Assembly: GCA_951406725.2 (NCBI GenBank)
Contig: OX597828.1
Span: forward strand, 6,882,001-6,946,000
DNA length: 64,000 nucleotides
DNA from: Octopus vulgaris
Lineage: Eukaryota
Direction: 5' to 3'
Made by a program: the position numbers and the translations under genes. The first letter of the stretch is position 1; each line of letters begins with the position of its first letter. Below the pieces are notes generated by a model. It worked only from the letters and a program-made list of their open reading frames with translations. It did no database searches and was not told the DNA's origin. Below are positions 3,535 through 64,000 of the stretch, piece after piece.

Positions 3535-3535
<1 letters not shown>

Positions 3536-4646
3536 TGTTTCTTTATTAGCCACACAGGGCTGCACACAGACGGGACAGATTACAAAGTAGAGCTTTTCTT
3601 TTTGGGGGGTAAAAAAAGTGGGGTAGGTTTTCGATCAAAAGGGATCGTAAAAGGAAAAGAAGAAGAAAAAGAGAAAAAGGAAAAAAAACAAAAGAAAATA
3701 AAAAAGAAGAAAAGAGGAAAAAAGGGAAAAAACGATCAATAGGGATCGTGTATCACAGTGTCATGATGTAAGGTGTAAATGGGGAGGCAGATAAGGTTTA
3801 TCCGTGGGAAGAAAAGCCTACGGAATAGACCACGGTAACCTCGGTCAATAATGTTACATGTTACCACATTTGTTTGCAAGTGGATAACCCTCTGTTTTAA
3901 ATTTCTGGGTTCATAGGATTATGCTCAAGGTGGCTTCGTCATTCATACGTGCCATCCTTGCTACATTCACCCATCTTTTTTTTGAAACATTCGCTAGACA
4001 AAACTTGCCTCTCTACTCTCACTTTCCTTTTCAAGTGATACTTGAAGAAGTTGGTGAGAGATTGACCAGAGAAGAAAGTATTTGTCTCCAATCCTTTCAG
4101 ATGCGTCCACCAGATACATTCTTTCGCCATGGAATGGGTGGAAGCACTCCGTCGGTTACGACGACGAGGGTTCCGGTTGATCCGATCAAGGGAACAGCCT
4201 GCGCGTGAAATTAACGTGTAAGTGGCTGAGCACTCCACAGACACGTGTACCCTTAACATAGTTCTCGGGAATATTCAGCATGACACAGAGAGTGACAAGG
4301 CCGGCCCTTTGAAATACAGGAACAACAGAAGCAGGGAGTAAGAGTGAGAGAAAGTTGTGGTGAAAGAGTACAGCAGGGATCACCACCATCCCCTGCCGGA
4401 GCCTCGTGGAGCTTTAGGTGTTTTCGCTCAATAAACACTCACAACGCCCGGTTTGGGAATCGAAACCGCGATCCTACGACCGCGAGTCTGCTGCCCTAAC
4501 CACTGGGCCATTGCGTCTCCACTTTCTTTCGCCATAGCCACAAGTATGACAAAAATAGCTCTTCCTTCCCGTTTGAAGGAAGGAGGCGTGACAATATTGA
4601 CGATAGACTCGGCTGATAAACCGACTCGTCCTATACGAGACAGCAG
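3535..4646 (-). mobile_element. Tx1/L1-clade LINE 3' fragment, copy 1 (interrupted by SINE-C)
   Basis: Encodes ...MAKECIWWTHLKGLETNTFFSGQSLTNFFKYHLKRKVRVERQ..., near-identical to the copy at 11268-12097. The 3' UTR ends gcagccctgtgtggctaataaagaaacat + (ATCT)n. Confidence 0.8.
4131..4523 (-). mobile_element. SINE-C, full length, tRNA(Arg)-like head (resembles octopus OR-type SINEs)
   Basis: Minus-strand head gacgcaatggcccagtggttagggcagcagactcgcggtcgtaggatcgcggtttcgattccc with A and B boxes. 12-bp TSD ttctttcgccat at 4119-4130 and 4524-4535; the empty site is visible in the paralog at ~11849. Confidence 0.9.
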
Positions 4647-5421: not shown

Positions 5422-5765
5422 TTACTCTTTACTCTTTTACTTGTTTCAGTCATTTGACTGCGGCCATGCTGGAGCACCGCCTTTAGTCGAGGAAATCGAC
5501 CCCCAGGACTTAGTTAAGTTACACACCAGCATAGGTTGTCAAGTTATATTGAGGGGACAAACACAGACACACAATCACACACACATATATATACATATAT
5601 ACGACGGGCTTCTTTCATGTTCCGTCTACCAAATCCACTCACAAGGCTTTGGTCGGCCAGCGGCTATAGTAGAAGACACTTGCCCAAGGTGCTATGCAGT
5701 GGGACTGAACCCGGAGCCGTGTGGTTGGTAAGCAAGCTACTTACCACACAGCCACTCCTGCGCCT
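5422..5765 (-). mobile_element. SINE-A copy (internally deleted)
   Basis: Head aggcgcaggagtggctgtgtggtaagtagcttgcttaccaacc (minus) through the (aaaagagt)n tail. Confidence 0.9.
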
Positions 5766-8258: not shown

Positions 8259-9270
8259 TTGGGTTGGCAACTAAGTTCCCGCCATTTTTTTAATTTTTAA
8301 ATTTTTTAAAAGGTTTAAGAAGAAATAACAACTAATTAATTAATAATGTATTCACCCTTGTTGTTTACAACTTTTTCTCAACATTCAACAAGATTTTCAA
8401 TACCTCGTTGGTAGAAATCACCCGATTTCGACTCGAAAATTTGATCGAACCAAGCTCTCAATTCTGCATCAGTATTGAAAGAAACTCCGCGCATCGCATT
8501 TGAAAGAGATAGAAAGAGGTGGAAATCCACTGGTGCCAAATCAGGAGAGTACGGCGGGTGTGGCAGCACTTCCCAGCCATGCGTTTGAATGGCTTCCTTG
8601 CTCATATTGGCGATATGAAGGCGGGCATTGTCGTGCAGCAGCAGAACACCATGCTGACGATTAGGTCTTTTATCTTGAATAGCCGTGTTGAGCTGTTCCA
8701 TCTGTTGAACATAGAGTTCCGCGTTGACCATTTGGTTCCGTTCAAGCAGTTTTACACGGATGAAGATCGTTGCTTGTTTACCGGGGCTAAGCCATTCCCT
8801 ACGCTGCTTCATATTGATGTACAGGCACCATACAACTGAAGCTTTCCCATCGAGTGAAGATGCTTCTCTATAGCAGTGTGGGAGCATTCTATTTTCACTG
8901 CCAGTTCCCTTGTCTGACGAGAATTTTCGTGCAAAGGTTGGTTTAATCGTTCTTCATCGAACTCAACTGGACGGCCAGAACGAGGTGCGCCATTGAGACA
9001 AAATTTCCACTTTTGAACTTGACATGCCAATCACGAGCGGTTCTTTCAGCTATGGCACCCTCTCCATACACAGCGCAACTGTCGCGAGCAACTTTTGCCG
9101 CCTTAGAACCTTGATTAAAAGCAAAAAGGAGGTGTCGAAAATGCTCGGTTTTCTTAAATTGACGTTACATTTTAATGATCTGAAAATAAACAAAAATTAA
9201 CTAAAATTAACACGAAAAAAAATAGATTCCAAAATTTAAAAAAACGGCGTGAACTTAGTTGCCAACTCAA
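8259..9270 (-). mobile_element. Mariner (DD34D) transposon, internally deleted, transposase pseudogene
   Basis: TIRs ttgggttggcaactaagttcccgcc / ggcgtgaacttagttgccaactcaa flanked by TA. ORF pieces contain PRSGRP, LLHDNARLH and HPPYSPDLAPVDFHLF; the first catalytic D region is missing. Confidence 0.95.
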
Positions 9271-9562: not shown

Positions 9563-10012
9563 ATATGTTTCTTTATTATCCACACAGGGCTGCACACAGA
9601 CGGGGCAGATTACAAAGTAGAGCTTTTCTTTTTGGGGGGAAAAAAGTGGGGTAGGTTTTCGATCAAAAGGGATCGTAAAAGGGAAAGAAGAAAAAAAAGG
9701 GAAAAGAAAAAAACCGATCAATAGGGATCGTGTATCACAGTGTCATGATGTAAAGTGTAAAGGGGGGAAGCAGATAATGTTTATCCGTGGGAAGAAAAGC
9801 CTACGGAATAGACCACGGTTAGCTCGGTCAATAATGTTACATGTTACCACATTTGTTTGCAAGTAGGTAACCCTCTGTTTTAAATTTTTCGGGTTCATAA
9901 GATTATGCTCAAGGAGGCTTCGTCATTCATACGTGCCATCCTTGCTACATTCACCCATCTTTTTTTGAAACATTCGGTAGACAAAACTTGCCTCTCTACT
10001 CTCACTTTCCTT
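9563..10012 (-). mobile_element. Tx1/L1-clade LINE 3' fragment, copy 2
   Basis: RKVRVERQVLSTECFKKRWVNVARMARMNDEASLSIIL*, with the same 3' UTR ending in aataaagaaacat next to (GATA)n. Confidence 0.8.
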
Positions 10013-11267: not shown

Positions 11268-12097
11268 ATGTTTCTTTATTAGCCACACAGGGCTGCACAC
11301 AGATAGAACAAATTACAAGGTAGAGCTTTTCTTTTGAAGGTTTAAAAAAAAAAAAAAGGAAGGGGGAGTTTCGATCAAAAGGGATCGTAAAAGGAGAGAA
11401 AGAGGACAAAAAAAAAATTGGGGTTAAAAAAAAGGGGGAGAGGAAAAAAATTGATCAATAGGGATCGTTATCACAGAAATGTCAATATGAAGTGTAAAGG
11501 GGAGGACAGGTGAGGTTTACCCGTGGAAAGAAAAGCCTACGGAAAAGACCACGGTAACCTCGGTCAATGGAGTCACATGTTATATTTCTTTTTTTTTTTT
11601 TTTTGCGAATAAGCAACTCTCTGTTTTCAATTTCTGGGTTCATAGGATCATGCTCAAGGTGGCTTCGTCATTCATACATGCCATTCTTGCTACATTCACC
11701 CATCTTTTTTTAAAACATTCGCTAGACAAAACTTGCCTCTCTACTCTCACTTTCCTTTTCAAGTGGTACTTGAAGAAGTTGATGAGAGATTGACCAGAGA
11801 GGAAAGTGTTTGTCTCCAATCCTTTCAGACGCGTCCACCAGATACATTCTTTCGCCATAGCCACAAGGATGATGAAAATAGCTCTTCCTTCCCGTTTGAA
11901 GGAAGGAGGCGTGACAATATTGACGATAGACTCAGCTGATAAACCGACTCGTCCCACACGTGACAGCAGTTGTTCGACATAAGCCCACAGGTCGGAAATT
12001 GTTGGGCACTGCACGAGTGCGTGCAGAACGGTTTCGTCGCTCTGACCGCATCTCGGGCAGGTCGGCCCCGTGTTTCTCGAGCCGTGTCTGTAGAGCT
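11268..12097 (-). mobile_element. Tx1/L1-clade LINE 3' fragment, copy 3, with ORF2 C-terminal CCHC zinc finger
   Basis: Manual minus-strand translation gives KLYRHGSRNTGPTCPRCGQSDETVLHALVQCPTISDLW…, a zf-RVT-type CX2C-X8-H-X4-C motif of L1/Tx1 ORF2, in frame with ORF 11640-12014. GATA repeats on both sides. Confidence 0.85.
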
Positions 12098-12177
<80 letters not shown>

Positions 12178-59180: not shown

Positions 59181-59396
59181 CTATATTTTTTATTTTTATT
59201 CTATTTTATTTTTTATTTTACTTATTTCAGTCATTTGACTGAGGCCATGCTGGAGCACCGCCTTTAGTCGAACAAATCGACGCCAGGACTTATTCTTTGT
59301 TAGTCTAGTCCTTATTCTATCGGGTTCTTTTTCCAAACCGCTAAGTTACGGGGACGTAAACACACCAGCATCGGTTTTCAAGTGATGTTCGGAGGA

Positions 59397-59476
<80 letters not shown>

Positions 59477-59657
59477 ATATATATATATATATATTATGTG
59501 AAATAGAAAGATGAATAATCTTGTTGCAGATTAATCAAAAGTTTAACCGATACCTTGGTAGCAAAAATCACAGCAGAAGACAGCACGGTTGGAGGTACAA
59601 CCATATGGTGTTGCAACCGTGCGTTGGTGCGGATAATTGAATTTTAATATTATTAGT

Positions 59658-59974
59658 GAATTGAAGAAATGGAGTTGAACGAAGATTGAACAGAAATCGT
59701 TTTATTTCATTCTACACGTGTTTCGAAAGGCACAATTTACCAAATTCCGATTGAATAATGAGACCATATTGTGTCTTTCTCTTCAGGAAGAAATAGGAAA
59801 TCCGTTCTGTTCTGTTTTTTGTTTTTTCCAACGGATTTCCTATTTCTTCCTGAAGAGAAAGACACAATATGGTCTCATTATTCAATCGGAATTTGGTAAA
59901 TTGTGCCTTTCGAAACACGTGTAGAATGAAATAAAACGATTTCTGTTCAATCTTCGTTCAACTCCATTTCTTCA

Positions 59975-59978
<4 letters not shown>
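59658..59978. repeat. Perfect inverted repeat, 149-bp arms, 23-bp spacer
   Basis: Arms 59658-59806 and 59830-59978 are reverse complements; the mirror-image ORFs in the track agree. Confidence 0.97.
59841..59933 (+). ncRNA. Type I hammerhead ribozyme (mirror copy on minus strand at 59703-59795)
   Basis: Stem I tatttc-ttc / gaa-t-gaaata; CTGAAGA 59850-59856; stem II gaaagacacaat/attgtgcctttc; GAAA 59912-59915; palindromic stem III acacgtgt; GTA cleavage triplet 59921-59923. Confidence 0.85.
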
Positions 59979-60039
<61 letters not shown>

Positions 60040-60184
60040 GACGGGCTTCTTTCAGTTTCCGTCTACCAAATCCACTCACAAAGCTTTAGTCGGTCCGAGG
60101 CAATAGTAGAAGACATTTGCACAAGGTGCTACGCAGTGGGACTGAATCCAGAACCCGGAACCATGTGGTTGGTATGCAAGCTAC

Positions 60185-60900
60185 TTTTATTCATCAAATT
60201 GGCCATGAAAACCAGATAAGTAGCTGCGGGCTGGACAAAGACATTAATGAGATGAGGATGATAATGATGAACAAAAATTAGGGGGAGGGCACCGGCGCCC
60301 GCCGACCGATAACCCCTCGGAATCACTGTTCTTTTATTCAATTTTACTCAAAAAACCACAAAAATTACAAAAGTTTCCTTAATCTTCCTCTTTCTCATCC
60401 GAGCCCCTGCATAATTTCCTTGCCGCCGGCAGGAAAGCCTGCATCAGCAGGTCGGAGCCAGGAAAGAGAAAAGCAAATTCTTTTTTTCCAAAGGCCGCCA
60501 TGACCTCAAAAAGGCCAACTTGGACAGTCAATGCAGACCGAGTCGTAACGTTGTCGGTCGAGAAGACCGTCCAAGAATCCCTCGACAGCCCCTCCCTTGT
60601 GATAGAAAATGACGGGTTCCACCTCTTCCTCACGAGGGGGGGGGGCTCAGCCTGCTCTGTCAGTGGCACAATTCCCACTGACGGTGTCTTTTCTGCCGGT
60701 AGCACACATCCCACCGGCATATCATTGGGATCTGTCGGCGGCACATCAACCTCCACCGGCGGTTTCCCATTTTTCTTTTTCTTCTTATATTTCTCTTCTT
60801 TGGGCTTGCGGTATTCAGGGCCTCTATCGGCTTATCCGTGATGTCTGCCTTCTCTCCCGCAACATGTATGTCTTTTGGTGAGCAACCACACTGTCACTCG
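60185..60900 (-). mobile_element. Retroelement copy B (3' part), related to copy A at 32115-33316
   Basis: Minus-strand 3' end tcggcgggcg…ctcattaatgtctttgtccagcccgcagctact…aataaaa is joined to gtagcttgcataccaaccacatgg. It is preceded by ORF 60379-60756 with a Lys/Pro-rich upstream part (possible ORF1 C-terminus; homology not established). Confidence 0.7.
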
Positions 60901-61137
60901 TACACCTAATATAATGCGGGTTCTTTTTTTTTTTTTGTCGAACGTGCTAACGATTCTGTCAGCTCACCGTTCTCTTTCTATTTTATACTAATGACTCAGA
61001 AGGATAATAAAAAAAAACACATCCAGTTTTGGTGGGACTTGAATTTAGAACCTTGAGACGTTACTAAGCACCGCAAGCAAATTTGTGAGACATTCTGCCT
61101 TTTTTGTCTCATCTACTTCTTGTGTACAAATACAATG

Positions 61138-63670: not shown

Positions 63671-64000
63671 CAACCAATAAGGGTGAGAAATTTTTATACT
63701 AATTTAATAGTACATCCATTTAACACCTAGTGGCTTAGAGCATATAAAACCCGGATTTTCATACATTTTATATATAAATATAAGAGAGCGACCACTATAT
63801 GGTCTACTCTGTGGTCGCTCTCTTATATTTATATATATATACGACGGGCCTCTTTCAATTTCCGTCTAACAAATCCACTCACAAAGCTTTGGTCGGCCCG
63901 AGACTATAATAGAAGACACTTGCCCAAGGTGCCACGCAGTGGGACTGAACCCGGAACCATGTGGTTCGTAAGCAAGCTACTTACCACACAGCCACTCCTA
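63381..64000 (-). mobile_element. SINE-A copy with a ~170-bp hairpin-ended insert in its TA tract
   Basis: Tail at 63381; head runs to the window end. Insert ~63669-63837. Confidence 0.92.

Follow-up and report, generated by a model that had tools for sequence, protein, structure and literature searches.

Two decayed retroelement copies, here called A and B, interrupt SINEs of one type in the octopus genome, and this locus raises the question of whether they sit at the same nucleotide because the element selects that site. The stretch of DNA analysed, referred to as the window, comprises 64,000 nt of Octopus vulgaris (contig OX597828.1, positions 6,882,001 to 6,946,000). The reading favored here, with good but incomplete confidence, is that A and B inserted independently of each other, as members of a probably Tx1-like non-LTR family with many copies whose target is a single site in the head of a SINE abundant in octopus.

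The window carries about 10 copies of a tRNA-type SINE that is ~400 bp long and has a microsatellite within it. Copies A and B have an identical 3' junction in this SINE, between GGT and AAG, and the position is exact within 2-3 nt, the letters of TAA or the A-run fitting either side. The SINE resumes at 33315 on the plus strand behind A and at 60186 on the minus strand behind B. The two copies are thus 27 kb apart and opposite in genomic orientation, with the same orientation relative to the SINE. An earlier reading of the sequence alone (the sequence-only reading) had claimed both the common junction and this arrangement, and both were borne out. A 24-nt junction pattern has five matches in the window at up to 3 mismatches, against none in 100 shuffles. 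Three of the five are preceded by a normal SINE head, and those at 33315 and 60186 by an A-rich tail instead. Sequence-pattern scans gave no match in metagenome contigs, none in viral contigs, and 3 chance matches in Streptococcus.

As read from the sequence, the insertion site immediately follows the conserved A-box GG on its 3' side, within the SINE's tRNA-derived head. The A and B boxes of the host SINE were identified by eye; ARAGORN and Rfam made no call and found no tRNA gene in the window. RNA folds of the tail and the head were unremarkable, with z between -1.4 and 0. Both interrupted SINEs are of the GTAGC...TTAC type, which makes up 5 of the 9 aligned copies. The SINE copies at 1242, 8234, 13323, and 29610 have other letters at these positions and are all uninterrupted, numbers too small for a test.

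Copy A is a 1200-bp element (32115..33314, plus strand) made up of about 600 nt of 5' UTR, the front half of ORF1, an internal deletion, and a 3' tail. The head of its host SINE, together with the 5' copy of the target site duplication (TSD), is located at 32077..32114. The front half of ORF1 (32720..33131) starts with MAKK and contains one early frameshift and one stop. The tail (33137..33314) is followed by the 3' TSD copy and the body of the host SINE (33315..33664), whose second half occupies 33484-33664. The TSD is a direct repeat bounding A, perfect over 14 bp (32101-32114 and 33317-33330), or 16 bp with one mismatch. Outside its tail, A has no match to B or to other non-repeat sequence of the window.

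Copy B is a 698-bp element (60187..60884, minus strand), identified from contigs and the junction comparison as a 5'-truncated copy of a multicopy non-LTR family. It consists of a decayed coding remnant (60379..60884), in which a K/P-rich stretch is followed by a short C-terminal part, and a 3' UTR (60187..60378) that is homologous to the tail of A and most conserved at about 60218-60260. The body of its host SINE starts with AAGTAG; the first half (60036..60186, minus) has a 7-nt private insertion before the B box, and the second half (59218..59404, minus) lies behind the internal microsatellite. That microsatellite contains a 160-nt inverted repeat, 97% complementary (59647-59806 and 59830-59989), which is either a fold-back element or an assembly artefact. 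A shorter hairpin occurs at about 63770-63830 in another SINE copy.

The sequence-only reading had noted that no 5' TSD is visible in B. There is indeed no TSD, though the host SINE head, directly upstream at 60907-60885, had been overlooked. This A-box part of the head (60885..60907, minus), which ends in ...GTGTGGT, agrees with the intact SINE copy at 5765 in 18 of 23 letters. Its score was reached by 5 of 5000 shuffles and by 11 of 638 window tiles, the other 10 all falling on SINE copies. Since the head ends in GGT and the body resumes with AAG, nothing was duplicated or lost. The 5' junction of B is blunt, with 1-4 nt of microhomology. Just upstream of B's host, at 60942-60968 (minus), is the short head of another high-copy SINE, with a depth more than 1000 times that of the flank.

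Other family copies in public sequencing contigs stop matching B at 60885-60888, the point where the SINE head ends. Records 6, 13, 22, and 23 are contigs that match B up to this point and then extend for 105-304 letters unlike the window, so B is 5'-truncated; one of the four has a depth 10 times single-copy. The letters TGCTCACC in B were considered as half of a TSD accompanied by an 8-nt deletion, a candidate that is now held less likely because other copies match through 60885-60888 and continue into multicopy sequence. The contigs suggest instead that these letters belong to element B.

The contigs were assembled from 4 of the 19 listed runs containing part of the B stretch, representing 3 organisms and 4 studies, and their depth is not equivalent to copy number. 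With unique-flank depths of 87, 15, 18, and 4 in the four runs, the element exceeded the flank 6-31 times at 60851, 10-51 times at 60568, and, with the peak at 60202-60269, 174-1668 times in the tail block (60238). Such a rise toward the 3' end is the polarity of a non-LTR family, here one made up of several subfamilies. A second sample from organism A (record 15) also carries the B insertion itself, as does organism B, by its 5' junction (record 24). No empty orthologous SINE allele was seen in the contigs from the three organisms.

One additional copy crosses the junction into the SINE, and others probably do. Record 1 is a different copy (185 nt with 18 other letters and 9 gaps) that runs 20 nt into the SINE, to 60166. 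A variant letter located 9 nt from the junction, at 60195, belongs neither to B nor to the SINE head and occurs in 12, 14, 16, and 9 contigs of the four runs. The depth of this variant exceeds the total depth at 60210-60212, so most of the variant contigs are probably anchored in the SINE. The ratio of junction to tail depth is 0.28-0.59 with all contigs and 0.05-0.30 with variant contigs only, in units of depth and not copy number; the junction counts cover copies at the SINE site. A published criterion for target specificity is that more than 20% of flanks fall in one target (PMC4494074, from the accessible part of the text); beside it stand two of two window copies at the site and these rough depth ratios. 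The earlier claim of site specificity from two copies is therefore somewhat strengthened, by one further junction-crossing copy and by the variant contigs.

Kinship between A and B is evident in their 3' ends. The last ~180 nt align with a score of 99, compared with a maximum of 56 in 500 shuffles, and the tails are 70% identical. The sequence-only reading held that short tail motifs were all the two copies had in common, which proved incorrect, as the whole tail aligns. The host SINEs are more alike in their first halves (88% identical between A and B), but all 10 pairs among five copies fall at 88-93%. In the second halves, the A and B hosts are 79% identical, whereas B's host is 86-91% identical to its three closest other copies and 83%, 73%, and 74% identical to three older ones. 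The two hosts have one non-majority letter in common, in the first half, and it also occurs in 2 of 7 other aligned copies. Their 5' junctions are unlike, with a 16-bp TSD in A and a blunt join in B. From these comparisons, A and B are likely independent insertions, as previously proposed; the hosts are no closer than unrelated copies.

This bears on the explanation that a single old composite of SINE head, element, and SINE body was amplified as a unit, or that the SINE body is a captured 3' end, with B arising by internal deletion. Orientation and junction are the same in all copies seen, B has no TSD, and no empty orthologous allele was seen, all of which a composite would accommodate. However, the uneven identity between tails (70%) and host SINEs (88%), together with the lack of a shared diagnostic variant, makes one amplified composite unlikely. 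The sequence-only reading had named shared SINE variants as the sign of such an origin, and the comparison yielded no private one. Host second halves that resemble each other less (79%) than B's resembles other copies (86-91%), and a break in B on the exact nucleotide of the 3' junction, also speak against it. Moreover, a SINE head survives in both copies, with 5' junctions that differ, and a captured tail would leave no such pattern. We consider a composite origin improbable.

Loose preference would make the SINE site merely a frequent hotspot among widespread insertions at TT/AA-like motifs. SINEs account for 11.6% of the O. vulgaris genome according to the accessible text of PMC13282606, the variant-junction depth in one run is only 5% of tail depth, and the counts cover SINE-site copies only. 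Yet both window copies are at the site, where a single random hit, given 5 head sites among 128,000 strand positions, has odds of about 4e-5, and even 5% would represent an approximately thousandfold enrichment; little credence is given to a mere hotspot. A somewhat stronger contender, though still unlikely, is that the family aims primarily at true tRNA genes, in their D loop, and hits the SINE head through its remaining resemblance to them. The site just 3' of the A-box GG in a tRNA-derived head fits this, as does the 30-point divergence of the tails, which suggests that the family may be older than the SINE burst. Precedents exist in non-LTR families that target tRNA genes and in Dada, which inserts near the A box and anticodon (PMC4640811, PMC8869645, each in its accessible part). 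On the other side, the window has no tRNA gene, and all junctions seen run into SINE-specific sequence, a weak objection because the comparison could show SINE junctions only. Selection of the SINE head itself is the preferred reading.

The coding content of A points to an RNA-binding ORF1. Its best protein match, Octopus sinensis LOC115225585 (P0001), shows 65% identity over 135 aa; another fragment from O. sinensis shows 58% over 48 residues. Among representatives of 50% clusters, P0001 has 46 relatives with E up to 0.001, the named ones being Octopus proteins; a search for near relatives returned only P0001 itself among 684 candidates. The predicted structure of P0001, made with 30 relatives aligned, has two RRM domains (mean pLDDT 80.7) and best matches tandem-RRM proteins, including the La RRM, with Z 9.2 and an rmsd of 2.5 across 82 residues. 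A zf-CCHC knuckle after the RRMs is matched in 16 of the 30 aligned relatives, while P0001's own is degenerate (E 0.058). Its Atlas neighbours include ZCCHC3-type RBD clusters (0.89-0.90). Copy A is thereby predicted to encode the front half of a type I ORF1, with two RRMs and a CCHC knuckle. Transposase_22, expected of a HAL1-like type II ORF1, does not appear among the 25 families listed, out of 28 in total, for the 30 relatives. No DDE transposase, as in Dada, was matched in A, B, or P0001, and NCBIfam and PDB sequence searches gave no result.

The remnant in B is less legible. Its ORF of 150 codons stops at 60381-60379, some 190 nt short of the junction, and Pfam detects no RT there. This agrees with the sequence-only reading. 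The ORF itself is probably a mosaic of frames rather than a genuine single one, since frame-shifting indels at 60634 and near 60514 set other copies apart from it. The B ORF has no Pfam family, no homolog among 401 candidates of 264-2000 aa, and a best Atlas score of 0.79. No hit came from two C-terminal profiles built by hand, one of 8 relatives and one of 5, the latter picked by eye after the former failed. The K/P-rich start weakly matches the C-terminus of P0001 (E 0.02-0.08). Taken with the shared tail and with A, this likeness suggests that the B remnant is the rear half of ORF1. In other copies, the ORF end is joined to the 3' UTR (records 3, 17, 25, and 26), so no RT lies between them. 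No ORF2 (EN/RT) linked to the tail of A and B was found. If the B remnant is ORF1, the subfamily would, somewhat more probably than otherwise, be ORF1-only and require ORF2 in trans. Distant ORF1 relatives (P0005/P0048-P0050, P0006, and P0042) are found on contigs of 1.7-2.2 kb, a length that fits ORF1-only elements and may equally reflect contig breaks.

The family probably works like a target-specific Tx1 element, an analogy drawn from its ORF1 type and junctions. Type I ORF1s are present in other clades too. Of the Tx1-type traits, a precise 3' junction, shared by A, B, and a third copy, goes together with a TSD in A and with a blunt 5' junction and 5' truncation in B; a type I ORF1 is predicted for A by way of P0001. 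The accessible portions of the sources describe Tx1 families that target DNA and LTR transposons, U2 genes, and microsatellites (PMC4494074). Examples are Xenopus Tx1L in Tx1D, crocodilian Tx1-Mar in Mariner-N4_AMi, Keno in U2, and Dewa in tRNA-Leu spacers (PMC4494074, PMC3706591). An RRM/CCHC ORF1 in non-mammalian animals is consistent with Tx1 (PMC5203782, accessible part). The octopus family shares the fixed site in a multicopy sequence, the RRM and CCHC ORF1, and the precise 3' and variable 5' junctions. The 16-bp TSD of A is also that of SINEU-3, thought to be mobilised by Tx1-Mar (PMC4494074, same part). It differs in that its target is the head of a tRNA-type SINE rather than a DNA or LTR transposon, snRNA gene, spacer, or microsatellite, its host is a cephalopod, and no ORF2 was seen here.

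Other systems resemble it in part. HAL1 (half-L1) elements are non-autonomous L1 derivatives that encode only ORF1p (PMC5753468, accessible text). Like them, the octopus copies have a coding remnant leading directly into a short 3' UTR, 5' truncation, and presumed trans-mobilisation; unlike them, they have a predicted two-RRM and CCHC ORF1 rather than the mammalian Transposase_22, are site-specific, and would be ORF1-only by reconstruction. Utopia, NeSL-1_TV, LIN15, and LIN25 are RLE-type non-LTR elements in U2 or tRNA genes (PMC4640811, accessible text). They are similar in inserting into small-RNA sequences with precise 3' ends, with TSDs of 0 to 20 bp among families, but are single-ORF RLE elements, whereas the gag-like ORF1 of the octopus family stands apart and an RLE motif was not seen. 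Dada DNA transposons target tRNA genes (PMC3706591, PMC8869645, accessible parts), and the A-box region of tRNA-type sequences is a target common to both. Dada has a DDE transposase and 6-7 bp TSDs, in contrast to the 14-16 bp or absent TSDs, 3' polarity, and predicted RNA-binding ORF1 of the octopus copies.

A 2026 annotation of O. vulgaris lists 80 L1-Tx1 families, and the words target and nested are absent from its accessible text (PMC13282606). The accessible parts of PMC4758252, PMC3747384, and PMC8967140 held nothing relevant on insertion targets. No SINE-targeting LINE was found in the literature searched, a search with Repbase Reports and most subscription papers outside it, so the family may already have a consensus in Repbase Reports.

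Site-selective LINEs occur in the window, as three LINE 3' ends in (TATC)n indicate. The three 3' fragments (11268-12098, 9565-10010, and 3535-4630, all minus) all carry a zf-RVT ORF2 end that runs out into (TATC)n and come from one LINE family, likely a second site-selective one, targeting microsatellites. The likeness between these copies and the A/B tail is not significant (reached by 171-2501 of 3000 shuffles). A different tRNA-type SINE lies within the LINE copy ending at 3535 (about 4120-4525, minus), with a TSD-like repeated flank. The window also contains a Mariner/Tc1-type DDE transposase fragment (8378-8953, minus) and a decayed LINE with an RT fragment (46526-48214, plus; RVT_1, E 6e-4).

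Insertion would begin immediately behind the A box, with an APE-type endonuclease nicking the bottom strand across from GGT^AAG. The A-rich end of the RNA (AATAAA) would prime reverse transcription on the nicked T's, consistent with the fixed 3' junction observed. A top-strand cut about 16 nt downstream would yield the TSD seen in A, and B would have been joined bluntly after 5' truncation by way of 1-4 nt of microhomology. ORF2 would be supplied in trans by a Tx1-like partner. Each insertion would split the A and B boxes of the SINE, silencing that copy and sparing genes; with the boxes 0.7-1.2 kb apart, the interrupted SINE would be expected to lose Pol III transcription.

If this reading is true, SINE heads join the safe-haven targets of site-specific retrotransposons, and a LINE-type element parasitises a SINE, not the other way round. 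The endonuclease of the partner would add a new nickase, one that recognizes a specific sequence and leaves a stagger of 14-16 nt. Because octopus SINEs expanded recently, the system would offer a natural test of target choice against copy number. Genome annotations will wrongly call such copies truncated SINEs or host genes; P0001 (LOC115225585) is annotated as an uncharacterised gene. More tentatively, and leaning toward the doubtful, octopuses may harbor long-lived, multi-subfamily ORF1-only elements with an unseen Tx1 partner. These would be hyperparasites that cut the Pol III promoter of the dominant SINE at one nucleotide, disable that copy, and track the expansion of the SINE.
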